64,000 bases of DNA from Trichoplax sp. H2 (lineage: Eukaryota). The stretch lies in the NCBI GenBank assembly GCA_003344405.1, contig NOWV01000011.1:186001-250000 (forward strand), given 5' to 3'. Positions 3,562 to 45,429 of the stretch are shown here, piece after piece. Under the pieces are notes generated by a model that was given only the letters and a program-made list of their open reading frames with translations, searched no databases and was not told where the DNA came from. The position numbers and the translations under genes are program-made. Positions within the stretch are counted from its first letter, which is position 1. Each line of letters opens with the position of its first letter.

Positions 3562-6500
3562 ATGGTCATGGATTACGGTAATCAAGTTATCCTATCTGAA
3601 GATATTGATGAAAACTACGAACCAACAGAGGAAGGTAAGTCATCAAAGATTAATGATACTGTATAGATCTCTATACAAATCACACATTGAAATCGATCTC
3701 GACAACAATGGAGAGTGTTGATATCTAGAAAAGATCAAACGATGCATGTAGATAACAACTTGCTTTTTTAAGATTATGTCCAACTTACAGGGAACAGGAG
3801 ATAGATATCGTAAACGATAGACCATCATTACAGTACAACGATATGGGTGATCGATATTCATTGATACCTATTGAATAAATGACTATGCGACTATAAACTG
3901 CCCTTTAAAATCATCCAGAACTACACGTTTCTTCAATGGATCACACTCGTATATTCAACGTTTGAGGACTGCAATTATTAATGAATAAATCTCAATTTGT
4001 ACACTACTGGATAGTATATACTTGTATCATAGACGATGACACGGTAGAAGTTCACTTAACCTTAAAGATTCCCTTGTACCCTAATAACTGAGAGAAAAAT
4101 TTTCAATCTTTGTTCTGTTCATTTATTATCATTAAATATTGACGCAGAACTGCTATACTATGGTAATACTTCATATACATTATATTCGAATAAACGCCTA
4201 AAATAAACTTCTCCAGAAATTGCAACCGCCTTCTTAAATTACTGTATTAAACGAGAATATTGATCAGGTAACTTTTTATTCACTACCACTATCTCAAGTT
4301 TAAATCCGTAATAACTACGGGAATAATAATATTCTGGATATAATATTCACGCAAGGCAACAATTAGTTGTTGTTATTTATTTATTTATTCATTTATCAGT
4401 ACTATAGCATACATACAGCAGAATTAGTACAGTATACCGATATTAATTCAACATGAAAATTAAAAGTGATTATACACTCGATGGAATCGTTATGTACTTC
4501 CGAAAGGATATTATTACTACATGCGTGTGTCTATGTGCAGTTTTCTTCTAGCACTTAGGGCTATATCAAAGATGCTTACAAGTGCAACACGTAAACGATG
4601 ATAGCGTTCTATTAAATATTCTTTAGATACTAGAAAATGTACCGATTTAGCATTATAATTAAAGGATACAAAATTAAAATTTGTGATTGAACAACGAGAT
4701 GCCTTACCATAAATATTCGATCAGCACGCAGTGTAACAAGTTGCACAGTTAATTATAATTTGCAGATGAACTTGTTATTGATCTTACTAAATAGCACAAT
4801 CATAATCGTATGCCTATACATCGTATATAATGCGGCATTGTATCTTCTTTACATTTGTTAGAAATTCGTGAATATGCTACTGTTATTGGTATTGATCCTG
4901 ACCTTGAGCCTGAACTAATGTGGATTGCTAAAGAAGGAATTAGTGCACCATTACCACCTGATTGGAGACCATGGTATAGCATTATTTTTATGCGCAATCA
5001 TGATTTATAATATTATGCTACTGTGTAATTATAGCAACTGACCAACAAATTACAATATCAATTTAATCACTTTTATTTGCATATTTATCAGCTGAAATAC
5101 GAATTTATATCACATCTATTATGATCTTTTAATTTTTTTCCAAATTTTGCTGTTATATTTGTATACATATCCGATAGCCAAGATACCAACGAAGATATAT
5201 ATTACTTCAATTTCGCATCTGGTGAAAGTACTTGGGATCATCCATGTGACGAATACTATCGTAGGATGGCAGAAGAAGAAAGACAACGACCAAAAACCAC
5301 AACGAAGAGACCACATCGAGATGATCACGATCGTGACAATAAACCGAAAGCTAATTCTTCATCAAGCAAAGTCCTATCGGCACCTGTTAGTAATCGATAA
5401 AAAAGGAGCCTTCTTTTATTGGATATTTATTAACTTACGTTCTCTAGTATTGATGACTCTAATTTGAATTGAATAGCACAATACGTAATAGTCTTAAACG
5501 TACTAGCTATGCCTGACTAGGACTATTTATACAGATTATAGCCAAAGAACCATTGCAACCTTTAAATCGACATGCAGCATTGGTTAGTATATATCTATTA
5601 AATATCAATTGAATTAATACTCTAAAAGTCTTTATTTATGTTTTGTATATCTCGTATAGAATATATAAGCCTTTGCACATTGCACTATCCATTGAATAAT
5701 TAATTTTATATGATATTATAGGGTTCAATAAATGATCACGGTAAAGATAATGAACTTATTGAAAACAGATCGCACTATAACAAGACAGCATCAGGATCTT
5801 TGGAAGGAATGAAAATCCAAGATCAACAAAGTATGAATGTTGATGAAAGGATAACTGATATGGACGATGAATACGATATTCAAGACGTGCCCAGCGATAC
5901 TTTAAGCAGTAAAAACGACATGAAAAATTTATATATAGGTGAAGATATTCATTTAATGCCAGAATTATCCGATTGCGATAGCCAGGTATGAATCATAGGT
6001 TAAAAATCTTCTATTTAGTATAGTTTAATCTTTATCTAAGAATTTACATATTAATATAAAACTGAGTATGTAATGTATAAAGTGTTGGGACAGATTTACC
6101 TAAATACAGTAAACTCATAATAAAAAATTGCTGTAATAGAGCATTAAATATAGAAAGTACGTTCTAGTAAAATAATGACTAAATCCAATGTGATACTTTA
6201 GATAGCATCAATACTTTGTGCTAATCCTATTATAAATTACACGTAATAGAAAAGTTCCGATTTTCATCTCAACATTAAAGATGTCAAGGAGCTAGACTAT
6301 GAGGTAAGAAAGACAATGGAAGGCACTTGCATGATGTATCATTAGATAAAATTTATTTTATGTGTAGTCTAAAGTGGTTATTCGACTGGCGCAATAAGAA
6401 ATAAATAATTGTAATATCAATGTTAATTTAAAGGCATCAGATCTAGACTCCGATGTAAGATTAGATAAAGAAGGAGAAAAAGTGCATCTAGCTCTATCAA

Positions 6501-9500
6501 GTTCTGATTTGTCTATTAGCGACCATGGAGAAGTGGTATTGATAACATTAATAATTGCTTTTATTAATTATGACATAAAATACTTAATCTTATTCAGTTT
6601 TAGCTCTAGCATTGTTAGAATTTATAACAACTTTTTAAATAGACGAGGAAACAATTTTTCTTACTTTGAACTGTTCTATTTATTTTTTCAGGTTTTCCCC
6701 ATCATATCAGATGCATCAAAAGAACAAGGCGAACGCAACGACGAACGCAACGACGAACGCAAAGACGATAAGGAATCTACTCATGGTAAAGTGTCTTTAT
6801 CAACAAAATCTGCACAAGGAATAGAGGAAAAGGTTAGCTCCTAATATACAGTATTTTACGAAGAGAACACTGACCCATAATTTTATGATAATTTTAACGT
6901 TGTTATATAAACTATACTCCATCATATTGAAAGCACTTGATATTGCTAACGAGTTTAACTGATTAATTAGACACCACAAATTCAAACTAAGAGCGTAGTC
7001 AAAGAAATGGTAGATACAGCCATACAATGCTCGTTAGAAAACGCAAATCAAGCAATAAAGGACTTAAAATTAACTCATCAAGAGGAAATTGAAATAGAAA
7101 AGAGAAAATTAAAGCAACAAAATGATGATATTATCGATCAATATAAGAAAAAATTAAATACCGAACAAAGAAACGAAGAAACTCGATTACGTGCTGAAAA
7201 GGAAACATTACTAAACAAATTTCGATTACAGGTCAGCTCAGTAATATTTTATTTAATATACGTGACGTACACGTATGTACAGGAATTATTATTTTTAAGA
7301 TAAAAAATAAGCTGAAATATACTCAACTTTAATTATTAAATTTCTCGACTATTCTTGATTGTTTTCTCTGAGTAATTTATAGGTAGCTTATGACATAATT
7401 ATATTTTATTGCATTTCAATGTAACCTTCACCAGCCATAATCTTACATTCCTGTAAATTCTATACAGTTCATTTTAAACCAGTAGTTCATAAATAATTAT
7501 GTCTTACTGATTAGATCTTATTGTAATTAACTTGTGTTTTTAGACGACAATATAGATAATTATAGCAATTTAAGTATTGCAATTTTAAATTGATCAGATT
7601 AAAGATATGCAAGGCGAAGAAGAAAAATCTCTAAGGCAAGAGAAAGAAATTGAATTGAAACAATTAAGAAGTAATTTAGCGGCTGAAGTTGCCAAAGAAG
7701 AAAGCCGTTTAAAGTATGTTTTATCATAAATTTTCTTAGTTTTTCGGCTTAGTCGACATGATATGCCCCTAGTGATTGTTAATACTCGATTATAATTGCA
7801 TAAGAATGACTACGTAATTTCACACTAGCAACTCGCTACAAGATTATCAAGTTTGTATCTTGAAGTGCTCAACACCTACTGCTTATTCATACTATGCTAA
7901 GCTTAGCTAATTCTCATGTTTGATATTGATCATGGACTTTGTATAAAAATTTTAAAGATTTTCGCATAGCTTTTACCTCAATTTTAACTGAAATTTTATG
8001 ATAATTTCTATAATAGAATGGAGAAAGAAAAGAAATTGCAAGAAATGAAGCTTAGTATTGATAGAGACTTTAAAGAAAAAGAGGATATTTTAAATAAAGA
8101 GAAACAACAAATAACTCAACAATTACAGGATGCTAGACAAGAAGAAAAGAAACGAATGATGGAAGAGATCCAAGAAAGTGTTCAACAAGAAAAGGATTCT
8201 TTAAAACATAAACTACAAATTGATAAAGAAAAGGTTCAGACTATAATGGGTCTTGATACCCTTTAGACTTAATTACGATAAAGTTTTCTCTACTGTTATA
8301 TTAAACTAATTTAACCATATACGTGTTTTCTTGAGATATAATTTAATATCAACATTTTTGGTTGTGATATTCATTGCGAAAGGAAATTGATGATTATTGT
8401 CAGCAATTACAGTATGAAAGCCAAGAAACAGAACAACGACTACAGAATGAGTTTAATAAGGTAACAAAGGTGTCAATGAATTGCTTTTCTTTTGAATATT
8501 ATTCTCCTTTCGTATCTATTTAATTAAGTATCATCTTGGAGTTTGCTGTAAAAAGTTAAAAACAAATTTTAACAAAACAATATGCTTAAACCTATTAAGT
8601 AATATATTTATATGATCTTGATAACAGAAATTGACTCAATTAAAAGATCAATTGGAGAAAGATTATCAAAGTGAAGAAATTAAATTAAAAGAAGACATCA
8701 AGACCAAAACGGAAGCTTTACGCGAACAGCGACAACAATTAGAAGATGTAAATATACCTTTATATCCAATATTAGTTCAATACATACGATTAAAATGTTG
8801 AAATTACGATTCTCTTCCATTAATTATATGGACCAATGTTACTGTAAATATATTTAATTATTTCAATTCGTACGCTATCACTACAAACAATACTATAGGT
8901 TGAATTATAGATTTGCATTGGAGAGTATTGTACTTCATAGTATTTTACTCTACCAGCTATTGCGAGTACTTCTGAAGAATATTTAGTAGATATATAACTT
9001 CTCTTTGATGGAAGATATTGTAGTACTTAGTTATTCGTTAATACCTTGTTAAATACTAAATTAAGATAAAAGTATTTAATAGTCTGCAAAGCGGAGTTGA
9101 CAAAATGTGATCCAGAAAATTTATTCATTATATTACAGGAAGAAAACAATTTTAATGAAAATGTAAAGCAAACTGAAAACGAACATTCTCAAAAATTGGT
9201 AAAATGATCACATTTGTTAAGAACAGTTACTAAATGTTCCTAATTTGCTGACGAATTAGATCCTGTAAGATTTTTTTTGAGTCAAGTACACTATACAATT
9301 ATGCTATTATAATTATAGGAATTGATGAAAAAAAATTTAGATGAGCAACACAAAAATGAGTTAAACAAATTAAGAGATGAGGTATTTCATATACCGTTGA
9401 AATAAAATACTCGTATCAACCGTTTACGAATTTAGTCAGCTAAATCAAGTAAAGCTAACGTTTCTCAAGATATATTATCTCCGTTCTGTCTATCTTTTCC

Positions 9501-12500
9501 ATGCAGCAAGATAAATACGTTCAAGCGCTTTGCAAAGAACAAGATGAAAAGTTGCAGCAAATTCTCATGGTAATAAACCGTAAAAGATCTAGTAATATAA
9601 TTAATTTTCTTGAAATTAGCGGATTTTATATACATATGTTAATATAAAGTATAACATTATCATAGAAAAGAGATGTTATGACATTGTTATCGACTTCATC
9701 ATGCTACAATTTTATAGAATTATGAATCTCGGACAGATCAAATTAAAGATGAGTGGGAGAAGAAATTGTCTTCGATTAAAGCCAGTTATGAGAGTAAAGT
9801 ATGTAGTAATTGTTATACTATACGAGATATTGCTCTATTAAATGTTAAATTCTATATTATTCTATATGTATTCATGAGATTTTATCTACATGTATCTAAC
9901 AGACACTATAGTGCTAAATTTGTAATAGCAATAAATATTTATAATCTAGACTTATCACAGCAATTAATATAACTGAATAACAAATGATTTTTTTTCATTG
10001 CTGACAATATCTTCGCCTTCTATATTGTCATCTATATATATATCGTACTAGTATGTTTACGTGATTTTCCTATAATCTCGCTAGATCATGACGGCAAATC
10101 TTTCATAGATTAGTACAACACTAGTTAGGCTCATATTTCTTGGATCTATCGTAATAGCTGGGCATTACATATTTCTTTAGTCTTTAAAAAATAAATGTCA
10201 ACATGCTATCATAGCATCGTCTGTTATTTTCAATGTCTTACTGTATACTAAAATTGTTAGTTATTAGTTTAATTGATGCTTTCCATCGTTATTATGCAAG
10301 GCATCTTAGATAACTTTTGATTTATCAATAGAACAAAGTTTTACTAGAATTAGAAGCTGATATTGAGGCCAAGAAGTCAAAATTAGAGGTGTCGAGTAAG
10401 GATGCTGATGTGAAGGTGAGTACGGTGAAGCAACTAATATTGACATTATATCTATGCCAACCAAAATCATGTCAGTTCATTGCTCCTATTGACAGCGAAT
10501 TCTAAGGATAAAAATTAATTTAACTTCATTTGTTGCTGCGATTGGATGAAACTTTAGTTACAAGAGTCGTTAGCTGTTGAATTTGATCAAAAGATTAAAG
10601 AACTAAAACAACAACAACATGATTTAGAAGCTGCTATTGATAAAAGTCGTCAGGAGACTAAGAGTTTACAAAGGTATGAATTTCATAAAGTAACAACTGA
10701 TAGAAGATGGATTCATTACCAAATTTACTGAAAGCTGCATTATTAATTAATTGTAATCAGTGAGAAGAATCGTCTAAAGCGAGAATGTCAAGAAATTCTT
10801 GAAAAAAAGACGATCTATCAACGGCAAATCGAGTAAGAGAATTTTAATAGATCACTGACTTAACATATAATTAAAAATATTGCAATAGAAATAATCTGTA
10901 TCGTACGTTATTGACAAAAAGATCGAGTTCTAGAGCATGAAATACTACGGAATTGGATGTAAAAGTAAACTCACTTTCATAAAGCCGTTATTGATATTGC
11001 AATCGCAAGCGAAGCGATAATGTCATCCTTTATAGTCGGCCCTAATAATGATATTATATTCATACAATACATTTAGCCATCTATTTTGCATTATGTTGAA
11101 TTATAATAACGATTAAAACATGGTATGAATTAACCGAGCCTGAACATAATGTACCTTTCTTACTTTGGTTACTTTGGTTACTTCTTGGCCAATAATTGAT
11201 GATATTAATATACTGTATATTCATACGCGTATATAGCACTGTTCTTCTAAGATGTTACTAATAAGTCGTCGCCTATCTATAAAAATTAGAAACTTGTCTG
11301 ATCAGGCTAGCCAACTGAAGCAAGAACCTGTCAATTATGAAGAAAACATCACAACTCCTTCAAACAAGCGTCAACACCCGAAGCGCAACCGAGACATTGA
11401 AAGAGAATTTGATCAATCTGAGGTATTTTCACTTAATTGTCATAATAGCTTGGTTTCCCTTTTAATGACGAAAATATCATTTGTTAGTACATTGATAATT
11501 TATTCTCTTTATAGGGTAAGATCTACAATGGTAAGGCTGGAGCTAAGAACCGAATTCATCATGAAAAATCTAATCGACTAAAAGTAACTGATATGGCTCA
11601 AGGTAGAAAATTGGATATATTGAAATGAGAAAGCTCTTAAATAGTTCAGAAATCCCCTCGCATATTTGCTTTATTTAATAATCTTAGAAAATTTCTTTAT
11701 TTTTCGATCTAGATCGTCTGAGTAGCGATGACAATGAAGTAGTTTATAGCACCAAACCATCCCGATTCCAACAAGATTATAATATCGTAAGACGTGGTGA
11801 AAGCGCACATGTTAGGAATGAAATTGAAATGGAAGATTTAGACTATATTGATGAGTAAGAATTTTAGATACACGGTTTAATTAATCCATAGCAAAAAAGA
11901 ATCAGAGCATTTCATACAGAAAAATTTCAGCCGTATCTTCTTTATGAACCATATTAACTCCCGCTACAGAACGTCTGGTGAAAGATTAGAAGATGAAAAT
12001 CGAGCCATTAGAAATGCTAAACTTTTACTTCAGCAACAAAAATCACGATTAAAAGAACGTCAGGTTTGTATCAAATTATTACACTAATTATGTTAACCAT
12101 TTTTAGTGTCTTAATTCGATATCTTTCATACGATTTAACGTTTTATTGCACCCGTCTTACAATTATTGTTCAATAATAATTATTAGGCATCATTGAAAGA
12201 GCTGCAAGATGAATGGAAAACAGATGTTAACCGGTACTTAGGATCCGGCAAAGTATGCAAGCTGTAACTGTCGGAGTTTTGAAACTACCGCTCAGTTACG
12301 GGAAATCATTATTGATTTATATTGCTCTTTACGTTACTTAAATGATTTATACCAAAAAATACTGTATTACTTAATCCGCGTCGATAATTTGTAGCTTAAT
12401 TATTATACTTATTTCTATGCTATAAACTGTCCAGAGCTCATCTTCAGCTAGTGTATCGCTGTTAAAAAATATCAAATCAAAAATTGATCAGGTGGGTATC

Positions 12501-15012
12501 GACGTACGTGCAGTTGAATAACATCATATTACATGTCTAAGTTCTAAAGTTTTACTTATCGTAATCTATTATAAGGACCAGGAGTAAAATTACATTATTT
12601 CAAACATTTGAACCTTAGGAAGTATCTGACTTGAATGAAATTCGCCATCAGATCCTCTCTAGTCAAACTCTTGTTGACGAAAAGGAGCAAAAATTGAAAA
12701 AATTAGAAATATCACTCTTAAGTTTCCAGGTTAATTGAATTTGATAATATTTAGATATGCATTTGAGACGATAAATGCCTTTAGTCTAAGAAACTAATTC
12801 ATTACTTCACAACACGGATTTTAAATCAGAATGAAGCAATTAATTGTAAATTTATTAGTCTAACTTAATTATATCGCGCTCAATTGATGTTTATATATCC
12901 ATTTTATATATTTATTTTAAAGCAGAAACCAACTGACAGCGATTACGAGTCAAGAGGCGACATTCACTATGATGAGATATATCAACCAGAACTATTGCAA
13001 TCTCATCCAAATAAAGGGAAGCATTCAGCTAAAGGGTATCGACCACGGTCTCCCAATCAAAGATTTATTCAACCCGAAACGTCAGAAGCTAGTAGTACTG
13101 AATTCGATTATCATGTACCTTCGTCGAATAAAAAAGAAAGTAAAAAGTATCGAGATCAGTTATTAATATCGTTGCAGTCAATCGATAGCAAGTTAAATCA
13201 GGTATTGGCCACAGCTCGATCTTATACTACACCGAAAGATAATACTCCAACTCACAGAAGATCCGCTATGCCTTATTCATATTCTGCTGATGATGTAAAG
13301 CAAACTCCGAAAACAAGGTAACAGATATTACGCTCATAAAACCTTGACTTGATACTATAGCCATGCTGAACGTAAGATGGATAAACCATTGTATGTCAAG
13401 TTAATAGTAGTACAGTGATAGTTTATTTCAAATCAAAAGAAATTTCAATTAAGTTAATAGATTTAAGAAGATACAGGCTGCACCCCTAATACGTACCGCC
13501 CATCTCGTGCGAGCATGCTTTACTTTCTTATTTGATTCATAATGTGCACTTAGTAGATAATACACAATACCATGAGGACTTCTTATCAATTAAGTATTTA
13601 CTAGCAATATAAGTATAGTTATTAGCTAATCTAACTATTACTTTAATGCTCCAATAGTGATCCTGTGGATATTTACCTACAAAGAAAATGGTACTCATAT
13701 CTAAAAGGTAATGCGCAAACCAAACTTTATTAATTCATCAGCTAAATTATATTATTTAGACTTGTAGCTTGATAATCACCAATTATATCGTTGATACTCA
13801 TTCGTCAATATATTTTGGCTAGGATCACACCATTTGCCCGGCGATAGTTCCAGGCCAAAATCGATTTACAACTTAGCTAGGTAAGCTGATGTACAGTAAT
13901 AAACAATTTACCATTAATCTCATATCTTAAAGTGTAACAGTAAATCTATCTTTATCTTTAGAAATATGATAATAAATTTCGTTCACATACTTTTTTAAAC
14001 AATAGAGATACTTGGAAATCATACCCTACCAGTGCCGGAATTTCCACTGCTAACAGCAGTACTTCAGAATTAGTCCAGATACATAATTCATGGTTAAAAG
14101 ATTTTGAACGGCAGTCATATGCAATAAAATATAAGTAAGTTGACCGATTTATAGATTGATTGACTAAAAAACGTAGTTTTTACGACTATGCATAAAGTTA
14201 TAATAGCTGCGATATTACTGTCTTTGAACTCAGTAAAGTTACCTGTCCGATTCAGTAATGAATTCGTATTTCTATTAATATCGCTACACTATAGACTCAT
14301 GTCTGAGACGATTAGCTTTTAGTAAAGCAGTAACATAAGGAAGCAATGTCATATTATTTCTTACTGAAAAAGTTGCCTGGCGTCTTGTTATCATCGGAAA
14401 CATTTTATTTCTTTAAAGTATACAGTGCGTACATATTTCAAGCCTACAGATTTGTATCGAAGTACAACAGAACATATACAGTATGATCTATGAATAAGTC
14501 AATATCAATACATACTATGATTATGTTGAATAATTAAGGATAGAGTGTTTGAATTCAATTATGGATATTTATAAATATTCTGGTCGACCAATCGTTTCTA
14601 TCTTTATATTAGCTATGATTAATCAAGTAATTAATTTTACCGTATAAGCGGTGAAAGATCAGTTACAGTATCATCGTTATCAATCTGTTATCCATACACT
14701 TATCCAGGCTCTCTGCAATGTTCTTCACTTAATAATTTGGTAACGGTGGCTACGAATATCAGCGTCATATTATTCGTTTTTGCTATATACTGCTAACAGA
14801 ATCGTTTATTATTCGGAGAAAGTTATTTATTAAATCTTGATATAACTTATATTTAATTTTAAATCTTTCTTTTTTTATATGGCGACAGCTATGGTGATGG
14901 TACTCGCTTAAATAAAACAGCGCCTGGTCCCGATACCATTAAGTACAACTCCAACAACTGGAATAAGCATTCGACGCCAGATAATACATTAAGATACCCT
15001 ATCGAATTCTAA
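3562..15012 (+). CDS. CEP164: Centrosomal protein 164 (N-terminal WW domain plus long coiled coil), multi-exon
   Basis: Exons 3562-3634, 4862-4973 and 5178-~5385 splice via GT-AG to [96 protein letters not shown]. This closely matches the conserved CEP164 N-terminal helical bundle and WW domain. Many E/K/Q-rich coiled-coil exons follow (e.g. ORFs 7007-7303, 8018-8266). The penultimate exon 14006-14134 splices in frame to a last exon 14889-15012 (...TLRYPIEF*). Internal exon boundaries are not all resolved. Confidence 0.92.
6730..6768 (+). repeat. Coding 12-bp tandem repeat (GAACGCAACGAC x~3) encoding [12 protein letters not shown] in a CEP164 exon
   Basis: cgaacgcaacgacgaacgcaacgacgaacgcaaagacga is read directly and translates in ORF 6482-6844. 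Confidence 0.85.
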
Positions 15013-16474
15013 TTATTGATAAGCAAGCATTCTTAGCTTTTTAATGCCAAAATTATAAAATAAATATCCACTGATATGAATATTCTATCACAGAAAATTT
15101 ACTACTAATTTAAAGTTCTAGCGTGCTTTTTAAAGTAGGACTTCCAACTGTACCTCAGCTCCAGCGATTTCATTTCAGTTGATCTCATCTACTGTACGAA
15201 TCAACATAATACTGTAGCTAAAGTGCAAATATAACATTATTTGCGTGATTTAATAAATAGACATCGTTATTTATTTAGTAAAATTTTGAATCATGTTTCT
15301 TATCTCAGCCTATACAAAAGCTCAAGACATTGTCAGCTCTGTTCATTGCTGATTTTTTTATTCATAAGCAATATTTTTAGGTGATTTTTAAATAATAGAG
15401 GTTATAAATATCAGCTTAAGCGGTTATGGAAGTAAATCGTACCAGCTCAATATATGATAAAAATGAAATGTACAATGCACTCTTTGCTTAAATAAAACTT
15501 TATAATTACAACAGCAAATATTTTTAATGCTATATCATTTCAAGTTCCATTATGAAGGAAACGCATGCAGCGCTGTCTGATTAGATCACAGCAATAATCG
15601 AATATTTCTATCAATATATTAATAAAAGGCATTTTTAACATAAATATTCGAAAGGAAGGTAATAGGATGCTCATAAATTATAATTACTGGTTGATCCACA
15701 ATTCTAGCTAAGGGTACACCACAAAAATCAAAGAAAATGAATAACGAATTCAATTTCAACTCTGACAACTCTCTAGCAACAATTGCAGATGAAATTTAAA
15801 TTGTGTATACAGTCCAGTAATAAATTTTAAGTAATAGTTCTTATATAGATTTAATCAAATCAGTAAATATGATTCAATAATACGAGATAATTTATGGTTA
15901 ATACCGCAATCTGCCTAGTTAGATAAAAAAAGGATACATGCCACAATCCTGATTCATACATCTATATCAAATACGCGAATTTTAAAGGTGCAACAATCAT
16001 TCCTTATGAAATGTGAATTCATCCTCTATCAACTATAGCAATAAAATCTAACAAAAATAGCTCTACAATTGCATTTTATAAGCAGATTATTAACTATTCG
16101 CACAGTGATAAGAATTTACGTATATTTGTTTGAGGAAAATCAGAATGTGTTTATCTATATACGGTAATACAAGTGTTTCGGAAGACTAAATAATTTTGTT
16201 AAATCTACGCCATCTAGCACACTTTTACAACCATGAAAAGTATTATGAACGAATATGTCCAAGACTGTGAATGGTCTGTAATATTCACATTATCCAGTTA
16301 ATGTTTTATACAATTTTACTGTACAGGAACGTATTTATAATGCTTGATCTATCAAAGCAGCATATTTTCTGAATTAAAATTTAATCGCGAAGCTAGGATA
16401 TTTGCACAGGTTGTTCTGGCATGAGAAACTCTTCAGCGGTGAAAACAGTAGTTTTAAAGCATTCGTAAGCAACC

Positions 16475-19400
16475 TCACTTGACTTCTAAATTGCTAAGTA
16501 TATCTAATAAATATTTAAGCAAATAAAAAAATAATAACAATCAATACTTAATTGCAGTATTTAATAATTTCGATAAATAATTTACAAATAGCAATTAAAG
16601 ACGAGACCGCTGTATATTGGATTTTAATATAAAATTAACATCAACACATATAGATATTCAATGAGATCACTCCTGTTCTAAACTAATACAACGGTAGCAC
16701 AGTGTAAAAAATTGCATGAAGAGATCGCTTTTATTTATGTTGAAGATTCATAATTTCGTTGATATCTTGCAACAGTAGCGAGATCATGAATATTGCTAGT
16801 GGCATTAGCAATAGAGTATGATCAGCTAATGATAGCATATTTTGATTAGAACATTACCTGCAGTTCCTAAAGATGGCATAATTTTCTTATGCCTAGATAC
16901 AAGTTGTTCAATAGCAACATATCGCACCTCTACTTGTTGCAAAAGCCAGTCTTTTTGTACCAAACAATCAACAAGTTCAGTTGAAGTCTCTAATCCAATA
17001 AACATACACAATGTAGTTTTTGCATTAATTAAAGCACTGCTAAAAGCCTATTTTATTCAGAACGAACAGATTTCTAAACTTCTTTAATAAATAAATTATT
17101 AATAACGTACGTCATTTTATAACATAATCTTATTGACGAAGAAATTGTGGAGAAATATACTATTACAATTTTCCTAATTTTTTAGCAAAGGTGATCAGAA
17201 ATAATCTAAAATTGCATACCGTCTATTTTATTGTCTTTAATCAATTCATGCATAATTAGTAACAAAATTCACTAATTTCATAAAGCCTCCTTAAGCAGGT
17301 TACTTCTTCTTTCTAGAATAGTATTTTATTGTCTTTATAATACCATTCTACCGTTATTTCTGTTAGCAGATTTCATATACAGTAATGTAATGGCATCGGT
17401 TAACATTTAAAATTGACAATGGCACAGTACTTTCATCTTTTCAATTCAAGTTATTGTACCGCTAACAGAAGCGTACACTAACTACTGTAAACAAATAATG
17501 AAAACATAAGATTCCATTCATACCGGAAAAAAAAATCAATCACGATCAACTAAGAACATTAAATTAAATTATCTTACGCTTTATCTGCTCCTTTAAACTT
17601 CCATACAATTGTGATAATTTCTCTTTAGACATTTCTTCCACTATTCAATTCAACATACAAAATAAAAGGTCCAATGAGTACTTTATATGAAATAGATTCG
17701 TAGCAATAGATTATATAACATCTTTCCAAGAACTTAATTCCAGTCTTTCCACTAGATATAATTCTAGTTTAAGGCAGTTTATAGGAAGCAATTTTAATAT
17801 AGTTTAGTTTATAAGGGACCAGAATTAAAATTGTATTATTCGGATACCAAATATTAGTAATGAATTGTTAAAACTGTTATTAATATACGGGATTTAGATC
17901 TTTGGTTGGTGATATTAGTGATTCGGAGAGAAAATGATTGCTTAAAACGAAAAATATATGTAATACGACGCATTTTTCTCCAACTCTAAATTTATGTCCA
18001 AAAGGTAAGTCAAACGTTTAAAGCTATCAATTTACAGTTAATAGATCTCTTGACTAAGCAGCGTCCGTTTTTACCTCACAAATCATTCTTATTAAAAGGA
18101 TTGACTACATATCGTTTAGTGACTATTTAATACAAAATATAACTATGAATGCTATCAATCAATCAATAAGAAAAATTTTTAATAAGTTATAATCTTTCAG
18201 TAATTGTATATCATTCTATCTTATCCATTTGCTATTTTAATCTTTCTATTTAAATATTGATATCATCATGACCAGGCAATATTTAAATAATTTTAAAATA
18301 AATGAAGCTGCTGAGCAGAATAAAATATTGTACCTAAGATTAGAATCCCTAGTAGTACACGAATATACAATATCTCATGTCTACACATAAGCATAATTCC
18401 TAATTTTGATAACAAATAATTACATAATCATACAGAGTCAAAGTCTGAAGATTCTACTTATTAAGAATCGAATAGTAGAACCAAATGAATTCTGAATTTA
18501 ACCGTTCATATCCTATTCCCTATTGTGAGTAAATAAGTAATTTCAGGAATACTATAACAATCGCCACGTTATGAGAAGGGAAAAAGTAATAAATACAACC
18601 TTCAGCTTCTATTGGGTTGTTTAAGACTTTCTAAATTTAAGCTACATTTCATTAGTAGAATCCTGTTTTATTAAACCCGTACTGCAAATTTGAAAGTATG
18701 TATATATTTCACTTCGCTGATATATGGAATGAAATGACTAAAAGTAGTAATATACGCGTACAATGATTATAATTCAGAAAAATAATGTTCACCTAGTTAT
18801 GGATGAATTTTACTAGCTACAGCTAATTCTATAATCAAGCCAGACCCAAAATAATATATATGTAGTCATTAAAGTATAGATTCATAGAAATCACTAAGTT
18901 GATGACCGAGGCCGTTTGCCAAATAGTGTACCTCAATCGATTTTATTTGTTTATTAGTCGTTTCTGGTTAATATCTTGCCTATCAAATATACAACTTTCT
19001 GCACTTGTACCTTGTGCTAAACTACCGTTAATACTTTAAACCATTGCCATCGAAATATGCATCCCAGAGGATACAGAATGTAAATAGTAGATCAATTGAA
19101 ATACTTTTCATCTACACAGAAGGATAATTTTACACTGCTATAAAGTGGATTAAATTTAAGGTAACGTACGCCGGGGTTACTATGCAGAAAATGATACAAG
19201 GTAACAAATACACAATACAGTACTTATACATCTGTCATATTCCTGATTGAAAGCAATATTCTAAAGATCGATATGATTTTTTAAATTTTACAACCTGCTA
19301 GGAGATATTATTCTTAGATTACAGTACAGTACTTTCTTTCAAATCAGAATCAGTATTGCTACATACTGAATGCCAATTATAAATATCCCTTTAGCCTTAT

Positions 19401-20300
19401 TATGATCGACTATCACATGGAATAAATAATTTGTAGTGAACAACTTGTAACAGATCTGTAATCACGCTTTGCTCTTTCTATGCTACTATAAAAACCATCA
19501 CTTATACACTTGCTCGGTACAGTTAAGGAAATTGGAGATAAAAATGAATACTGCAGTACAGGCTATCAAGCAGTTTAGTATTACATGTGCGTGGTAAAAA
19601 TTTCGTAATAGAAAATGAAAACAGAAATAGAAATTAACTATCGAAAAATTATGATCAATTTATTCATTTTTATAACATTTGACTTACACTGACAGCGACT
19701 AAAACTGCCGTAATCTTTCTTGATATTAATATTATATTTGAATGGTCCAAGATCAGATAAATCGACATTGCTACCGTCTAAGCTAGTATCGCGACTAATT
19801 TTACCAGTTGCAGATGGGCTACCGCATTTGTCAGGCCTAAAACTACTACCGACAATATTGTCATCACTACAATTTGCTCCAGTTGATAACAAGTTACTTT
19901 GTGATGAAGTAAGTTGGTCACTTTCTGATTGGGTACGTTGTGGACATTGAGTATAACCGCCAATTTCAGTTTCTTTACCTAATGTTAGCATTGATTTTAA
20001 TTTGTCACGTATAGAAGTTAAGCTATAATAACTATTACTATCAACTTGACGGTTAGCAAGATTGTCTATATTTTTATCGTCGACTGATGTTAATGAAGCC
20101 GAAGTTTGCTTTGCAATTGCATGCCATTTCTCGAAACACCGGGAGTGTCCAACCACAGTAGACGAATGATAGTAACCTAACTGATTGTCCAATTTGCTAC
20201 AAATTGGACAAGTGATTAGATCGTGATCGTCTCCATAGCCATGACATATATAGCATTCACTGGATTTTAAATTGATTGTCTCAAATTCATCATGGGCCAT
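16475..20300 (-). CDS. Uncharacterised ~272-aa protein: N-terminal partial PHD/RING-CH-like Cys/His domain, Ser-rich linker, C-terminal FEZ/UNC-76/SCHIP1-like coiled coil
   Basis: Exons 20300-19688, 17640-17578, 16989-16858 and 16485-16475 have canonical GT-AG ends and consistent phase 1. The N-terminus reads CYICHGYGDDHDLITCPICSK...GHSRCFEKW. The C-terminus reads LEEMSKEKLSQLYGSLKEQIKQTSTELVDCLVQKDWLLQQVEVRYVAIEQLV, which by eye resembles the FEZ1/SCHIP1 coiled-coil core. The last micro-exon is least certain. Confidence 0.7.
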
Positions 20301-21510
20301 TATGGCATAAAGTTGTTTTTCTCCAAATACGCGATAAAATTTAGTTTATTCCAATGGAAAATATTCGACGTTAACAATATCGAATGATCAATAAATACCA
20401 GAGAAACCAAGCCAAATTTCACCTTTCAAAAATTTGTTATTCCTGCAATCGGGCGACAACATTAAATTAGATGGGAAGAGAAGAGAAAAGTTCACAATTA
20501 ATTGGAGAATGATCAATTAATACCGATCGCTATGAAAATTTATTCAACATACGACAGAGTGGAATAAGATGGAGTAACAATGCTAATTATAATGAAAAAT
20601 AATGACGTGTAATTCTGTTCAATCATACTGTATGATGGCATACAGGAACGATCGTGAATAATCATTTACCGTCGTAATTCTTCTTTTTAGCGTAGAATAT
20701 CAAATATTAGAACTAAACTGTTTGTTGAATGCTAAAAATGAATACTACAGTATTAATTCTAAATTTATTAACATAATATGGACCTGTAAAATTCAGATGT
20801 GACTTAAATAATTATAACATTCGCAATAATAAAGATGGCTCTTAACAGTAAACACATTAACGTGCAGATTTTGTAATAGCCAATCAATCATGGGTTATGC
20901 ATATACGTCGAATAATTTACCGTAGACATAATCGATTCAATAGTACAGGTGGTACGGTAAATTCTAACCATAGACGTCAAAAAATAAATCTAATGTTATC
21001 TGTATAACACGCACAGAAAATGCGAAGGATACTGCGTACAGTTTACAGTAACAGTAGTTGACAATATTTGTTTGATCCATTTATGATGGTCAAGGTCAAT
21101 CAATGTTAACGTGATAGTCGTTAATTTTTTTTGAAGTAATAAACTGCTGTAGTTATCATCTAATGGCTACTGTATTTAAAATTGAGATGGCGATTGGATA
21201 ATGGAAATAATTCGGTCATGATGTCATCCATCCAACGATTCCATGACAATAGTAACGTATTTCAATACGAGCATATTGTGATTACTGTAAGATTTACGTG
21301 CGCTATATTACGTCAAATATCTTCAACATATGGCACAAGATAGATGGTCACTTGATCTGTTTTAAAGTATTATGATTGATTGATTGATATGGTTGATTGA
21401 TGCAGTTTTTCAATCTAGTACTGTGATGTACAGTACAGTATAAATTGCCATGATAACATCGTTTTTATTGAAAAGGATGTTACTCTTTTCCTAGTCATCT
21501 GTCCTTGGGG

Positions 21511-22255: not shown

Positions 22256-22549
22256 ATCCTGTCAGTGAATTTCAATGTCGACCACCGTATTTCGCTATTA
22301 TATAGGCAGAATAAGCTGTTTCTAACCGGATAAAATATCCTAGAAGGCAACTACTATTTCAAAACTATCATAGTACTTACATTTGAAGCAGATTTTCAGT
22401 AGTTTTTCGTCAGTCATGACTAGAAGCAGCGTTGTTTTTTTACGACTTTAAGCCGCCATGTCTAAAAGACATGCTACGTAGATTCAGTTGTTGGCCACCG
22501 GTCAGGCCTGGATGAATGACCTGCGGTATGCGGTACATTACAGAGATAT

Positions 22550-24020: not shown

Positions 24021-27000
24021 TTATGCATTGATGCGATAAATTCTATCCTTAGAATAAATACTTTGAGGTCCATCAATAGCTGGCTTTACGGTGTAGGATT
24101 GTTCTTGAATGCAATAGATGAAAAAATTGCTTACATTATCAATATAGATCATTTAAATCTGTAATAGATTATTTATAATTCTACCGCCTAATATCAAATC
24201 TGATTTACTTTGGCAAGCTCATGGCAAGATCGAATCATAATATTAATCTCCAAAGTTCTAAATTACCTGCGCATTTTGAGACTGCAAATCCTAGCATTGA
24301 ATTAACTCGATCAAATGTGACAGAGAATCCTTTCATAACAACATCTCCCAAGATGATACCTACAGTATTGCGAGATAATTTGACTGGCATCAATTGAGAA
24401 ATACAGCAAAGCTGTAAGCAATTCTAAGCTAATCTCTGTGTAATCAGATATATTTCATGATAGGTATTACCAAATGCACCAGAAGTCCCTGCTATGCCAA
24501 AATGATAGCACGGTTTTCCATGACGTTCTTTTCCAGATAAGATGAAATATTGCTATTTAAAATAAATGTTCCAGTTACTAATACGTACGAGTAGAATGAA
24601 TTGCTACATTAATTTCCAGCGATTGGTCTTTGTGATAAATTTATCTCTAATTAATCAAAGCTGTAAAACGATTGCTCACAATTGAATAATGGGACCGAAG
24701 ATATTCTACTTTCACTAATTATATCAAATAACACACGAAAAGTATTACTAATAATTGTTGATTATCACCAAGTACAGTATAAGGATTGATCTTATTCTTA
24801 CTATGACTACAATAGGATTCATTACTGTCATATGGAAACGAAAAATATCATCACTATTGATAGCTAATTTCCAAGTATAAGGATTTATCCTATTTTTATG
24901 AATACTACAGCTACTGTAAGATAGCCGTACGAGTGCATAAAATAGCATTAATAAAAACTATAACGTCATTACATACTGTGCGCTATAAGGGATTATTTTA
25001 ATTTTGGCAATAGTATGGCTGTTGACTGTTTCCAGCAATTCGCATAAGCATTTTACGAATTGCTTAGGCATGAATCATGACTATGATACGAAATGTTATC
25101 ACATTTTAGTAATACAATGCTATGAAAAAAGTATGCTAATACGTAGTATTAGTATTAAAACTCAATTATGATTTAACATACCGATACGTAACATATCACA
25201 CTTTTAGCCATATTTATGATTACTCGTATGTAAAGATTATCTCTAGCAGTAACACCTGCTAAAACTGATTATATTACGGACGACAATATACGTTTACAGT
25301 AGGCTATCATACAAGTTTTCCAGGTATTGCTGCAGAGTACACAGTAACTAAGCAACATCTATGCAATCATCTCATAATTAATCTTTTGTAATATCCCCTT
25401 ACCATAGGCGAAAGAACTAATGTAAATTGTTGTGGTGTCTTGAAATTAGTTTTCTCGAAGGATGCCAATCGTATAGATAGGCGAATAGTTGGAAAACGAT
25501 GTTGTAACAATTGCGATTCTTCCATACATACTGCATGACCCCGATAGAAAAAACCATGCGAGAAAACCGATCGATCCTAATAAGAATTTAATTATTGGAA
25601 CGACATCCTCGTGGTTCTCGCAGATCAATGAACTTAACGAATCAAATACTTTAAGACATAAGTAAACGCAATATCATAAATACCTGAATGGAACGAAGAA
25701 AGATTGGCATTAATCGTTTATACATAAAAGGAGGAAAGCGGAGTATAGATGTTCCACTATCGACCAAGGCAGGATAATGCATGTACTAATGTCAATACGT
25801 GTGTAAAGTAACTTATATTTTAGCAAGTAATTAAAGGTATGGCATAAAACATGTTAAATTATAGTAGTTTCTCCTTTTGCAAGGATCGATTGATATAAAC
25901 ATTAGACTATACGGTAAGTAAGGAAAACCGTACGGTATAGAACTGAAACGATTTTTTACTAAAATACATCATAAATATTTGATATCTGTTCGTATCTTAT
26001 ATCGCTAATTTTAATTATTAATAACAATTTATTTCGTATTTTGGCACAAGTATGATACCTTGAAGATTAAATAGTATGGCAACAATAAGAAAGGCACAAA
26101 AATAAGTAGTATCTTACATTCACAGCAAACAGGAAACTAGTATCGACTTATTACAAATTGCCGGGTAAAATACCCAACTTAGGTGATATACATCTCTGCG
26201 CATAAAGCATATCCTGATGTTCACTTACATCATATGGTGAAAATCCAATGGATTGCCCATCAACTAATACATTTGTTAATTGAAACTGGTAATAATACTT
26301 TTCCACGATAGGTGTATAAAAGACAGGTCCAGCAAGTAAATTATTATCGATTCCGCCTAAAGTCTAGAACATTATTTATTAAGAAATCCTATTAAAATCT
26401 ATATTCTATCTAAAGCTGCTAGAAGAAAATTTGATTGAAATGCCTGATTTAGCATACGAGATATCACGATACCGGATGTATGTATAAAGTTGCTAAATAT
26501 CATTTACATTTAAAAAAAGTAATGATCTTCACATCCTAAGAGTCAAATTTTAAAATTTCTACTAATGTTATATACTTTAAAAAGAAGCTTATTTCAAAAT
26601 GCATTTTAGTGCACGGAAAACGTTGTGTTGGCAACAAATTTTTCAAAGCAATAATTCAAATTAAGGAATTTTCATACACAAAGTTATATAATACAATGTA
26701 CGATAATCATTACGCCATGTCATTTGGCATCACCTTTCAATATAACAATATTGATCGATAAAATGAAGCTCATCACTAACCATAAATCCACCACCAGTGA
26801 TATATTGATTGCCGAATAGATCCTTTCTCATCTTGCTAGCACAATAGGTTAAAGTAAATATATCGCGAATACCAGCTTGTTGAACAATTTCATTAAAGAC
26901 TGGTTTTTGATAGAAATTTCCTTGCTGATGCCATCATGAAATCATCAAAAGAGAATGCCCTCAGAGTAATATCGTTAACTCCCTTGACAGTACTCTTGTC

Positions 27001-28572
27001 CTTAAATTATTGAAATTTACTAACTTACTACTGCTGAGGCAAGCTTAATTAATTCTAATGTTAACTTATGATAATTTTTAAAATAGTGTTAGACTAACTG
27101 CTGATGATTGAAAATAAGATTAATCCAAGTGTAAACTATTTAACTTTAAATCTATTACCATATAGATTTGTTACTTTCAAGTTTTAATCAGGATAGTTAG
27201 GAATTAGTATTGGAGTAGGCTTAATTTTAATATCAAGCAGGATAAGTTATTGCTACTATTCAAGATATTGTAGATGAGCTAAGTTAAATATTTTATTCTA
27301 ATCATTAATATGAAAGGTGACTGTCTCTTTCCAGTTTTATAGAAGATATAGGTTTATTGATAGTCAGTAAAATTTTCAATCTATAGCAGAATAAAAGTAC
27401 TTACCACTGCTAAGGATGGATAGGCTAAGCCTAATATTCCGTCAAATCTTGTCGTTTCGGTAAAGAACTCTTTTTGATTTGTAATTGCTGCAAATTGGAT
27501 TCGTACTTGTTTATATAAGCCAATCCCTAAATGGAGCATATCGCTAACCAATTGACCACTCCAGTAGCCTTTAACATAGCTGGAATCGATTCGTAAATTG
27601 GTTTCTTCTAGAGTTGATGATCTAAGAAAGTGGAAAATGTTGTGCTAACATTACTCTCTATGGTAAATCAATTAATTTTCTTTTCCGGTTTATACCTATT
27701 CATATGAAAGTAATGCTTAACAACAGGGCTAGGTGCAGCCATAATTCCACAGAAACTACTTCCAGTGTCCAAGATAACCCGTAGCTATATTGGCATAAAT
27801 ATTATCCCTTACTTATGATGTATAAATAGATCTATGATCATGAAATAAGTTGACAGTTTTTTTATAATATAACGGAGATAATAAAATTAAGTAACATTAA
27901 TATATCACATCATATTGTAACTTTATGATATGATCCGGTTATTGCATTGGAAATTTTGATTTTTATTCATTTATAAATATATCTTAGCTGTATATAAAAT
28001 CGTGTCGTCTATTAAGAATGATGCATTCATAGAATACTAGAAAATATTTGGACTTTGTAATCTCCAGGCGATCCTTTAGATTTCTGGATTGTATAAACAA
28101 GCCTCTAGCCAACATTAACAGGATAACCAAGCGAAAATAGTAGCATTTTAATGCTATAGCTAGTGAAATTACTATACCGATCTAATAATCAAGTCGTATT
28201 ATCAATCACTGTACTCTGCTATCCTGCTATAATTTCATCTATCAGACTAAAATAGATAATGTCTCTATTAGTGCACTAGTTTCTTATCTTAATATTTCTC
28301 CAGTAATATAGATATACGGTCTTTATAACTTTTCAATATTTGATTACCTTTTGAGGTGGTGTTCCTAACCATATCAACATGGAATAACCAGCTTGCCCTG
28401 ATCCTCTGACTCTATCAAGGTAAATCCGATCATTTTCTAACCGATGATGCTCGATAGGAATATTTGTAAGAGATCCATCATATATTCCATTCCCACTGGC
28501 TAAGGATAATGTTGAAATACATATTATGGAATACAAGATATTCAGTATGAAGGCAAACATTGTTTTATTCAT
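24021..28572 (-). CDS. BACE: BACE-like (beta-secretase/memapsin-type) aspartic protease, paralog A; no TM segment found
   Basis: Signal peptide MNKTMFAFILNILYSIICISTLSLA. Spliced exons give VRGSGQAGYSMLIWLGTPPQK|LRVILDTGSS, flap SYVKGYW, FDGILGLAYP, TLGGID, ALVDSGTS, GIILGDVVMKGFSVTFDR...GFAVSKCA and then EQSYTVKPAIDGPQ. The 3' end is uncertain: read-through stop at 24021, or a short terminal exon near 23953-24002. Confidence 0.88.
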
Positions 28573-31047: not shown

Positions 31048-34000
31048 CTAATCTGATTCTGTAGGACCATTATCAGCAAGTGAATTATCACGGCTACCAT
31101 ATTGCTCTTCTGCGTTAGAGTAGGCTGGTGGATGGTGAGGAGAACTTACTTGACGATAGGGGTAGTCATTACTGCTTTTATTTCGATGATGATTAAAGTA
31201 GATGCAAGTCATGACGCCAATACTAATACAAGTCATAAATAAACTAATGCTGGCCAAAACCACAGATACAATAGCCACGCTATCTTCCGACGATGAGGAA
31301 ATATTTTGAATATTAAGGCTACCATCTAATACGTATTTATCGTTATGGATTGGACGAAAAAGGTAAATTAAAATATATGAATTAGAAAGCAATAGTAATT
31401 TTAATATATAGGAAAGAATTATAGCTTCATTATTAAGCTAGAAAATAATATAGTAGTAGTAAATAAATACTACTTCTGTAAGGGGTTTTAACTGTATGAC
31501 ATACTTTTAACCCTTTCTAGCCTATTAATCCCTGGACTGACTGTTAAATTCTTAGCTAGAAATGATATAAAAATTTCGTTAAATTTAACAGATTAAAACC
31601 ATTCGCTTACTCTATGCACGGTATAACATCAGATATCTAAGAAAGTTTAAGTAAAATCTTCTTATAGAGCAGGTAAATGAAAAGAGAATGAGGTTTATGT
31701 AAAATCAATTTCTTCACAAATTAGTCTATACGCTACCAGCTAACAGACCTGCAAAACGAGATACTGCAAAACCAACTTGATTATTTATTCTATCAAAAAC
31801 GACGGTATAACCTTCCATAAGTGCATCGCCCAATATTATAACCGGGGCATCTAGAAAGTTAAGCCAAGAATTAATGTAATGTAGATATCTTAATGTATCA
31901 AGGCAATATCATTTTGTCTTACCATTAGAGGAAGGGGAAATAGAAAAAGTATAACATGGAAAGCCCAAGTTGCGAACTGTCTCCGACAGACGTATGTATT
32001 GCTACGCAAAAATATGGAAATCATTCGGTAACTTAGTGATATCAGCCTTAATTTGTGATTTCTATCTTTAATCATTTGCAAAGTTATACGTGTATTCGTC
32101 TAGCACAATCATCTACCTTTTTGATGCGTTAACGATATTCAATTTTACCTGAGGGGAAATAGCTAAATTAAAACGGCTAGACTCGTAAGCCAACACTCCA
32201 TCTACTCCAGCTAAGGGTAAAGTAAATTCTATAATAGGTAGTGATGACCAAGCAATTCCTAATCCAGCTGGACATATTACTTCTCTTCCTTCCCAGAATA
32301 GTTTTGGTGCTTGAATCTAACCAATGAAAAGAAAATGGAGATTTCATTATGGATTAAAACGGCGATGATGTTCTCATTTCTTTGATAAAGTAATATTTAA
32401 TGGCGTTATACTCGGTTTATTCACATGCATATCAATTCCTTAAGCTTAGATTAGAAGTTTGATCAGAAATACTTCACTGTAACTTACGAATTTCTGAAGA
32501 CTATGAACTATGGTCCGGAAAACAGCAGGTGGAACGACAATCTCAGTAGTTCCACTATCGACAAAGGTGACATATTTTTCATACTAGGATTGAGAAAGAA
32601 CAGCAATTAAGGAAGAAATAGAGATCAAGTTGGACTTACCACAGATTATTTTTACTGGTGATTGTAGAGTGTCTTATTAAAGTAAGTAGGATAATCCAAA
32701 TAAGGATAAATACACAACTATTTTCTCTGTCTATCACTGTTACATAAATGGACTTGCTACAACTATATTTACTGGTAAAAAAATTTCTTGACAAATCAAG
32801 GAACCATATCTTCAAACAAAATATACCTAATTTCCTCGACGATAATGTATTGTACAACTGTTTCTTTTACACTTCACAAATTAAGATTACTACAATTACA
32901 GTTACTGACAGAAAAAATAGGATACATCCAAATAAGATGTATCCAATTTCCTCGAGAATAATGTAAAAGTATTTCCCTTCATACAGTATTAGCTGACAAT
33001 ATTGATTTAGTGTAATTATATTTACTGAAGAACGATAGAAATTCTTAACGAAATGGGGAAGATATTTAATTTTCTGGATGTGTAGGCAAAACCAGTTTTT
33101 TAAATGTCATATTACACAATAAACTTCAATGGCCGTTTCTACTATATCATTAGTTGGATTTTAAAGCAAAATTACCCCATGACAACACATTGTTATTGGT
33201 TTTCCATCCACAGATATATTTAATAGCTTGACTTCATAATACCATTTCTTGATAACTGGTGTGTAGTAAACATGACCTAAAAACAGTGTACGATCAATGC
33301 CACCAAAAGTCTAAAAGAGTACAAGATTAGAATGGATCAGTGTTTTAAAAACCGCTGATCCCAACGATTCAGGTTTTAAAACGATAGAATTTATAATCAA
33401 GCAATCGTGGATACCATTTCACCGCCATAGTTACTATCCTTTGAAGTCCAAGATAACCCTTTGCTTAGAACTGGACCATATAATGTCAAGGAAAAGATAT
33501 TGGCAATTCCAGTTTTATCGACTAATTGATCAAAGAAGGTTTTAGTCGGAGTCCCTATTGGCTATAAGAATAAACTTTGATCAGATATTTTCTGGAGAAA
33601 ACACACGTATAAAAATTCTCATGATATACGACTTCAACATATTCATTTTTTTTACTCATTTTTACGCTATCTATTGATAGAGCTAAAGATTAAATAGGAC
33701 GTTCATCTCCATCGATTCTCTTATAGTGGATCATTTGAGACTATCTATCATAGTTTGTTATAAATTCATGCGTAAAATGATGATGCGGCGGTAATATACT
33801 TATAGTAGCAAGAGAGCTAGCATCGAAGAACGAGCGGACTGTATGATGTTACCATTACTGAATATTACATTAGATATTAATAAAGAAAAATATTATTGCA
33901 TTTACCATTTCAATTGATGAATAACCCATACCAATAATGCTTTGCCATACATCACTTGATGGAAAAAATTGATAGGAATAAATAATACCTGAAAAATCTT

Positions 34001-44000: not shown

Positions 44001-44120
44001 ATTACTATCGTCTATTTCATCAAATAGCGTACGAAGATAACTCGCATTGGTCAAGAAAATGAATTGCAAAAGTAGTAAGGATAAAAATATTGAATTGGAA
44101 GTCCTTTTCCTAGCAGCCAT
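38043..44120 (-). CDS. BACE: BACE-like aspartic protease, paralog C; type I membrane protein, the most canonical copy
   Basis: Signal peptide and propeptide (LIRIPLKR). Spliced exons give MTGTPGNGYVVHVWLGSPPQK|LGVIVDTGSSNFAVAAAP, flap RYARGYW, NWQGILGMAYP, TFGGID, KTIVDSGTTNFRVP, GIILGDVIMEGFTVMFDR...GFAASKCA and GPQIRGNNSC. TM is VAIVIGSVGAAIFVIGFFMVMVV and the tail ends PPEYAETE*. All six BACE1-type disulfide cysteines are present. Confidence 0.93.
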
Positions 44121-45429
44121 CTTGAATGATTTTCCTGATTTCTCTGTCTGACTGTTTGAATGATTAGTTATAAATTACACAACATATGCCGCGCCGCGTA
44201 AAGTGGCTAAATTTAACTTAATATCTAAACTATTAAGTTTTGACATTGGTATTTCTTGAATGCATAAACCAACACTACCTTAATTATTGAATATCCATAA
44301 GTCATTCTCAAAGTTCAATATTGAAATGTTTTGTATAGCAAAGCATATGTTTTTTATAAATCTATTTATTGAATACAATCAATTCTTTCATATTTAATTT
44401 ATATTTAGGGAAGGTGATCTAATAAAAATCAACATGGATTAGGAAATTGATTCAACTAAAAACTACTGAACTTGACATAGCATTACGTAATATCAAAAAC
44501 ATCACTGATTGCAAACGTATAGCAAGATAGCTTCCTAAATTAAAATCACTCTTATTTTAAGATCCTAATCTGTGTTAGAGAAATAAAATTTTTCCCTTTC
44601 CCTTCTCAAGATAGACTAATAGACTAATGTGATCGAATAACTAAGTAGTGATACAGCAGAGAATCTCAAGTGTATCGTAAACTGTAAATCTTACAATTAA
44701 AAAGGAGATTTTCTCTGAAATTCGGAATCTTGATCCTATTCAGTGTCAGTGACAATTGTCAGGTGTGATACATTTTTAAAATTTCTGTAACTCCACTTTA
44801 TTTCTTAGTAATTTAGCAGAGAATATAATCATTTCTTGTTTTAAAATGTAAGTATTATATGCACTTTAGCTATGAATATCATATTAAGTAGCAAGAAATT
44901 GAAAATAGCATCAACCTAAACATGGATAAACTGTTAATTGCAGTATCCATTTTAGTTCATATACGAGTATGATACACAAGTTTCTAATGGAATTGAATAC
45001 TAATTTTCTTCAGCATCATCTGAATAAGAAGCAGACTTAGCTACTAAACGAAATAATGTAAAGTAGATAAGAAGATAATGTTAAACGTAAAACGTTGTTT
45101 TAAACAGCTGATTTATGCTAGCTATTTAGCATTGCTTCACATAGAATGCTATCAAAGTACCTACGAATAGTCAATCTTTATGTATATATTATGAAATTGG
45201 ACAGCCATAACTAAAAAGGAGCATTCACTGCCTGTTAAAATATCTTGTACATACTTTCAGCAATTTAAGTTAGATTGAACTATATAAATACAAGCAATAA
45301 TACATAAATCTAAAGGTCAAAGAGTGCGAACCAATGCAAATAAAATATCAGTTCTGATATCAAATTCACTATTCGTGCTTAAAAGTTCTGACCTATATTT
45401 ATAGACTAGACACTATAAGTTGGTAAAAG

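Follow-up and report, generated by a model that had tools for sequence, protein, structure and literature searches.

A spliced minus-strand gene most likely encoding a divergent member of the EURL (C21orf91) family

Exon structure and transcription

The stretch of DNA analyzed here comprises 64,000 nucleotides of contig NOWV01000011.1 (positions 186,001 to 250,000 of the forward strand). It is referred to as the window, and all coordinates are counted from its first letter. On its minus strand, the window carries a gene whose product matches the EURL (C21orf91) family at both of its ends. The coding exons of this gene (20300-19688, 17640-17578, 16989-16858, and 16503-16475) join into a single frame of 278 codons. 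A preliminary description, made from the letters and their open reading frames (ORFs), had presented the product as an unusual, possibly lineage-specific fusion of a partial zinc finger with a coiled coil. The gene model on which that description was built is confirmed by the sequence and by RNA contigs—the exon coordinates are exact, the first coding exon contributes 613 coding bases, and splicing to the small exons is in phase. Likewise, the C-terminal peptide quoted there is identical to the joined translation of exons 17640-17578 and 16989-16858. In the order of transcription, the gene is composed of the following elements.

22381..22517, minus strand: 5' non-coding exon with a firm donor end at 22381; a loose end of 137 letters places its upstream end at 22517 or farther upstream.
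19688..20442, minus strand: first coding exon; 5' untranslated region (UTR) at 20442-20301; from the ATG at 20300 onward, the 613 coding bases hold codons 1-204 and the first base of the next codon, followed by GTAAGT.
17641..19687, minus strand: intron of 2047 nt, GT..AG, phase 1; joint 17640/19688 seen in runs X1, X10, and X11.
17578..17640, minus strand: second coding exon (63 nt), in which the C-terminal helix begins; AG before and GTAAG after, with joints on both sides.
16990..17577, minus strand: intron of 588 nt, GT..AG, phase 1; joint 16989/17578 seen in X1, X10, and X11.
16858..16989, minus strand: third coding exon (132 nt), which encodes most of the C-terminal helix; AG before and GTAAT after.
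16504..16857, minus strand: intron of 354 nt, GT..AG, phase 1; joint 16503/16858 seen in X1, X10, and X11.
16475..16503, minus strand: last coding stretch, nine codons plus TGA; the exon goes on as 3' UTR below 16475.

The gene is real, expressed, and spliced. Contigs of four public runs (X1, X10, X11, and X13) were aligned to positions 16000-20800; herein, X10 and X11 are recorded as RNA. All three coding joints occur in three of the four runs (X1, X10, and X11, from at least two studies), each visible as CT..AC on the plus strand and, thus, as GT..AG on the minus strand. Among them is the junction 19688/17640, by which the preliminary description had connected the two halves of the protein. 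All three coding introns are of phase 1. The depth at the joints amounts to 33-112, as opposed to 0-12 across most of the intron length. The exon from 19688 to 20442/20443 is covered by RNA contigs at a depth of 61-112 in X1, X10, and X11, and exon 17578-17640 by a 63-nt contig at a depth of 104 in X1. One 253-nt contig of X10 runs through all three joints, from the first coding exon to the last, and head and tail therefore reside on one RNA. The proposal of one protein with a Cys/His-rich head and a helical tail is upheld in this respect, with a single transcript across all joints. Run X13 exhibits a flat, low depth of 0-12 without joints and is evidence neither way.

Upstream of the coding region, the RNA contigs of X10 and X11 extend beyond 20442 by 106 and 137 letters, respectively. 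The first 30 letters past 20442 correspond to 22381-22410 with one mismatch, where zero such matches are expected by chance, and GTAAGT comes next at 22380. The 5' UTR intron between the non-coding exon and the exon with the ATG thereby spans 1938 nt. On the 3' side, RNA contigs with an end at 16505 extend below 16000 by up to 2434 letters (an X10 record of 2940 nt), so that the 3' UTR of the gene either is long or shares an overlap with a convergent transcript from the plus strand.

Read from stop to stop, the first coding exon lies in a frame of 235 codons. No frame in the window is longer, and just 12 on both strands together reach 110 codons; the frame of the gene is thus more than a chance occurrence. 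The ATG at 20300 is preceded by an in-frame stop. A minimal upstream ORF, consisting of an ATG, one codon, and TAA, is located at 20300-20308 on the minus strand and overlaps the A of the main start, which creates the sequence TAATG; it might affect the use of the start site. Six coding differences were found in other runs. Of these, four are synonymous, and each of the other two alters an amino acid in the linker. The pattern is in line with constraint, although the numbers are small.

Protein product and its match to the EURL profile

The first coding exon encodes two of the three parts of the protein, whereas the C-terminal helix is contributed by the small exons listed above.

20100..20291, minus strand: Cys/His-rich head, residues 4-67; EURL profile match and putative zinc ligands.
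19689..20099, minus strand: Ser/Thr/Asn/Asp-rich linker, residues 68-204, delimited by composition and alignment; no Pfam match.

Pfam scans against 24,736 families were performed with the separate exon translations (204, 20, and 43 residues) and with the first 75 residues, listing matches with E values up to 10. All scores refer to these individual pieces rather than to the spliced product. The head alone (75 residues) matches the EURL family (PF06937) with 26.9 bits and an E value of 4.2e-6 and thereby exceeds the curated cut-off (24.7 bits); residues 4-67 are herein aligned to positions 5-73 of the 283-position profile. Scanned as a whole, the 204-residue translation of the first coding exon yields the same alignment (residues 4-67 on profile positions 5-73 of 283) with 23.2 bits and an E value of 5.4e-5. 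The 43 residues encoded by the helix exon 16989-16858 match profile positions 239-271 of 283 with 15.8 bits and an E value of 0.0099, EURL being the sole family listed for this piece. Head and tail matches are colinear, and the protein has 278 residues compared with the 283 positions of the profile. A relative found in protein collections, P0002, scores 23.3 bits against the same profile and is 72% identical to the protein of the window by BLASTP and 69% identical in the alignment.

The specificity of these matches was assessed with control pieces of 43-87 residues, drawn by a script from the 347 stop-to-stop ORF pieces of this kind that lie outside the coding exons of the gene. None of 140 random pieces matched EURL at E values up to 10. 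One coil-like control piece matched six generic helical or coiled-coil families, EURL not being among them. Both ends of the protein, in contrast, are assigned to EURL. The gene thus very probably encodes a divergent member of the EURL/C21orf91 family, most likely an orthologue—a spliced protein of 278 residues with a head, a linker, and a helix in the ordinary architecture of the family. It is not a new fusion because both ends match one known family colinearly.

The head shows the spacing C-x2-C, 11 residues, C-x2-C, 17 residues, and H-x2-C-x4-H. Candidate zinc ligands are C16, C19, C31, C34, H45, H52, C55, and H60 (plus H20), every one of which is kept in P0002. With two C-x2-C pairs followed by H-x2-C, the ligand order resembles that of RING, RING-CH/RINGv, and PHD fingers and agrees with a PHD-type cross-brace finger in its first three ligand pairs. 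Unlike in these fingers, the fourth pair is incomplete and consists of a single H60, perhaps together with H45. A RING/PHD cross-brace calls for eight ligands and a profile match; the head offers seven to nine candidate ligands, and its scores lie far below the Pfam cut-offs. These are 7.7 bits for zf-RING_2 (cut-off 27.3) and 10 bits for Prok-RING_1 (cut-off 29.1), next to 14.1 bits for PADR1, all of them far lower than the score of the head against EURL, and no PHD family was listed for the head at E values up to 10. A language-model search returned clusters of RING, PHD, C1, and RINGv domains with scores of 0.81-0.88, all below 0.9, which serve as leads only. The term "partial PHD/RING-CH-like" finger, as used in the preliminary description, is therefore adequate for the order of the ligands but not for membership in either family. 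Judged by its residue pattern, the approximately 65-residue head probably binds zinc. The word "zinc" has no occurrence in the EURL papers that were text-searched, and zinc binding, if true, would offer a tangible starting point for understanding how a gene of the Down-syndrome region works at the molecular level.

The linker of approximately 135 residues is probably disordered. It contains no His between residues 68 and 204, and it harbors two blocks that are invariant in P0002, at approximately residues 90-129 and 173-202. Compared with solved structures, the translation of exon 1 gave four matches, all to the 4F2 heavy chain (SLC3A2) with E values of approximately 0.056; these cover only the low-complexity linker and are irrelevant. 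A metagenomic candidate, L001 (6001-6171), was likewise discarded. It was the sole "confirmed" one of 182 pattern matches and belongs to a 793-residue ORF of bacterial type on a contig with 58-63% GC; it shares a seven-residue word with the head by chance and is unrelated.

The tail is predicted to form an amphipathic helix of approximately 60 residues at the very C terminus, encoded by small exons. AlphaFold2 modeled the 43 residues of the helix exon as a single helix over residues 2-36, with a mean predicted local distance difference test (pLDDT) score of 89.9. A coiled coil that mediates dimerization would be plausible for such a tail. Searched by sequence, the helix exon found no entry among solved structures, and it had no usable match in a protein atlas.

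Weight of the assignment and alternative explanations

Several observations weigh against the assignment to EURL or limit its reach. The tail match by itself lies under the family cut-off (15.8 versus 24.7 bits). In the center of the profile, approximately 165 positions (74-238) have no match—the 204-residue translation contains a single matched stretch, and the linker is not recognized. In addition, the similarity is seen by the curated Pfam profile only, and sequence searches returned no EURL protein. Word-seeded searches of 5.8 billion proteins recovered the ORF of the window itself (P0001) and P0002, or nothing. Herein, exon 1 gave two scoring proteins among 90 candidates and residues 1-75 two among five, in both cases P0001 and P0002, and the helix exon, searched against longer proteins, gave one candidate that did not score. 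When 1.84 billion representatives were searched exhaustively with a profile, P0002 alone was retrieved. The AlphaFold2 model of the head, computed from a two-row alignment, has a mean pLDDT of 46.9; it is unusable and lends no support to a particular fold or to zinc binding. For the tail, a crude heptad test over residues 205-262 was not significant, with the observed score reached by 898 of 5000 shuffles. Finally, orthology beyond family membership, as well as a role with CCDC85B and β-catenin, would be transferred from work on the mouse protein alone.

An extension that is compatible with the EURL assignment, although on balance unlikely, is that the EURL helix and the coil in FEZ and SCHIP1 proteins have an ancient common origin and that all of them share one interaction module. 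FEZ1/UNC-76 proteins are kinesin-1 cargo adaptors, and SCHIP1/IQCJ-SCHIP1 is a scaffold with a C-terminal leucine zipper. What suggests such a relationship is a likeness by eye to FEZ and SCHIP1 tails, together with the fact that the tail is a long and confidently predicted helix. As in FEZ1/UNC-76, there is a helical, probably coiled-coil region of similar pattern. As in SCHIP1, a conserved helix is placed at the very C terminus after a long low-complexity region. However, the FEZ1 pattern given in the preliminary description fits the peptide of the window only if a gap of four residues is inserted between its two halves. The N terminus differs from that of SCHIP1/IQCJ-SCHIP1, and FEZ proteins are not known to have a Cys/His head. 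Neither FEZ nor SCHIP-1 was listed for the 204-, 20-, 43-, and 75-residue pieces or for the control pieces at E values up to 10, a weak negative insofar as the filters of HMMER drop most matches above an E value of approximately 0.1 and an intron divides the coil, whose halves were scanned separately. The assignment of the tail to FEZ/UNC-76/SCHIP1, as put forward previously, is accordingly not borne out by the scans of separate exon translations. Literature searches that combined SCHIP1 or SCHIP-1 with FEZ or FEZ1 gave nothing relevant, and the terms "FEZ" and "SCHIP" do not occur in the EURL paper PMC4941730. Moreover, amphipathic helices can be alike through composition alone.

It is very unlikely that the gene is a lineage-restricted orphan whose two EURL matches arose by chance or by convergence on a Cys/His pattern and a helix. 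The low scores (26.9 and 15.8 bits), the unmatched center of the protein, and the single relative in very large protein collections would agree with such an origin. Yet, out of 24,736 families, two independent pieces both match EURL, correctly ordered and placed at the corresponding ends of a protein of family length; furthermore, the head exceeds the curated cut-off of a family that none of the 140 control pieces matched.

Hardly credible is the original proposal of a new, lineage-specific or ancestral adaptor in which a partial PHD/RING-CH finger is fused to a coil belonging to the FEZ/UNC-76/SCHIP1 families: the presence of a Cys/His head and a helical tail on one transcript, the by-eye likeness of the tail to the FEZ1 pattern, and the language-model leads to RING, PHD, C1, and RING-variant domains are set against RING scores of 7.7-10 bits at cut-offs of 27-29 without a PHD match, against the gapped FEZ1 pattern and the missing FEZ and SCHIP-1 matches, and against the claim of one known family, EURL, on both ends—an assignment that the preliminary description itself had named as speaking against its reading. 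As a domain fusion, the gene has no significance, its architecture being present in Pfam already. Two modest leads remain: EURL may range beyond vertebrates, and a protein family of the Down-syndrome region probably contains a zinc module.

Family range, proposed function, and neighboring loci

Vertebrate genomes are strongly depleted in CpG. The window has a G+C content of 31.8%, an observed/expected ratio of 0.91 for CpG, and one of 1.01 for TpA; CpG is not depleted, and the window therefore probably stems from a non-vertebrate animal genome. Its protein shares with EURL/C21orf91 the placement of the head on profile positions 5-73 and of the tail on positions 239-271, in the same order and at a similar length. 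It differs by being very divergent, by a center of 165 unmatched positions, and by its probably non-vertebrate host. Invertebrate EURL members may already be contained in sequence databases; literature searches found no paper on an invertebrate EURL/C21orf91 member. According to PMC8008080, C21ORF91 is conserved in jawed vertebrates and absent from jawless fish, and its distribution "closely mirrors" that of myelin. A gene of the EURL family in a probably non-vertebrate genome suggests a range at odds with the restriction to jawed vertebrates described there.

A more far-reaching idea, which has to be regarded as unlikely, is that EURL constitutes an old animal adaptor family rather than an invention connected with the myelin of jawed vertebrates, and that it combines a two-zinc, RING/PHD-like head with a helix homologous to the FEZ/UNC-76/SCHIP1 coil. 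If true, this would place a poorly understood gene of the Down-syndrome region in a superfamily of coiled-coil cargo and scaffold adaptors and would provide a testable biochemical mechanism.

For the EURL member described here, a function can be proposed by analogy with its mouse counterpart. EURL/C21orf91, the "early undifferentiated retina and lens" protein, is encoded on human chromosome 21. Knowledge of the family stems from mouse and human. In PMC4941730, it is reported for mouse EURL that FLAG-EURL coprecipitates with GFP-CCDC85B, a coiled-coil protein, that myc-β-catenin increases with EURL, and that the decrease caused by CCDC85B is cancelled by EURL. Disturbance of Eurl is described in the same source as altering the proliferation of cortical progenitors and neuronal differentiation. 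Overexpression of C21orf91 disturbs oligodendroglial differentiation, as stated in PMC8008080. By analogy, the protein of the window would be a small, non-enzymatic adaptor. Through its tail helix, it would form pairs with coiled-coil proteins resembling CCDC85B/DIPA, and the zinc-type head would perhaps offer a second binding surface. Binding of the partner would then shift the stability of β-catenin. For the protein of the window, we infer the coiled-coil pairing, the partner, and the pathway from this mouse analogy.

The neighboring genes are of animal type and comprise aspartyl proteases, a TM9SF/EMP70 gene, and a weak PKK-like coil. Within the 64-kb window, no Rfam family matched at gathering scores, and no tRNA gene was found. 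The exons assigned to neighboring genes are the following.

27384-27644, 26154-26363, and 24238-24423, minus strand: aspartyl protease exon set 1 (PF00026).
41856-42080, 40546-40758, and 39236-39367, minus strand: aspartyl protease exon set 2 (PF00026).
62446-62664 and 63604-63843, minus strand: exons of an EMP70/TM9SF-type gene (PF02990, 49.4 and 16.6 bits).

On the plus strand, positions 6971-7303 match PKK (polo kinase kinase, the C-terminal region of SLK-type kinases) weakly, with an E value of 0.0044, and coil-like frames extend over 6398-13321. This arrangement suggests a plus-strand gene that converges on the EURL gene. The aspartyl proteases (PF00026) form at least two tandem paralogous genes on the minus strand, at 24238-27644 and 38043-44174, and one exon pair is 47% identical. 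The frames 38043-38477 and 31048-31437 have the appearance of membrane-anchored tails, carry PPxY-type motifs, and are weakly alike, which suggests a cluster of membrane-bound, BACE-like proteases in possibly three copies.

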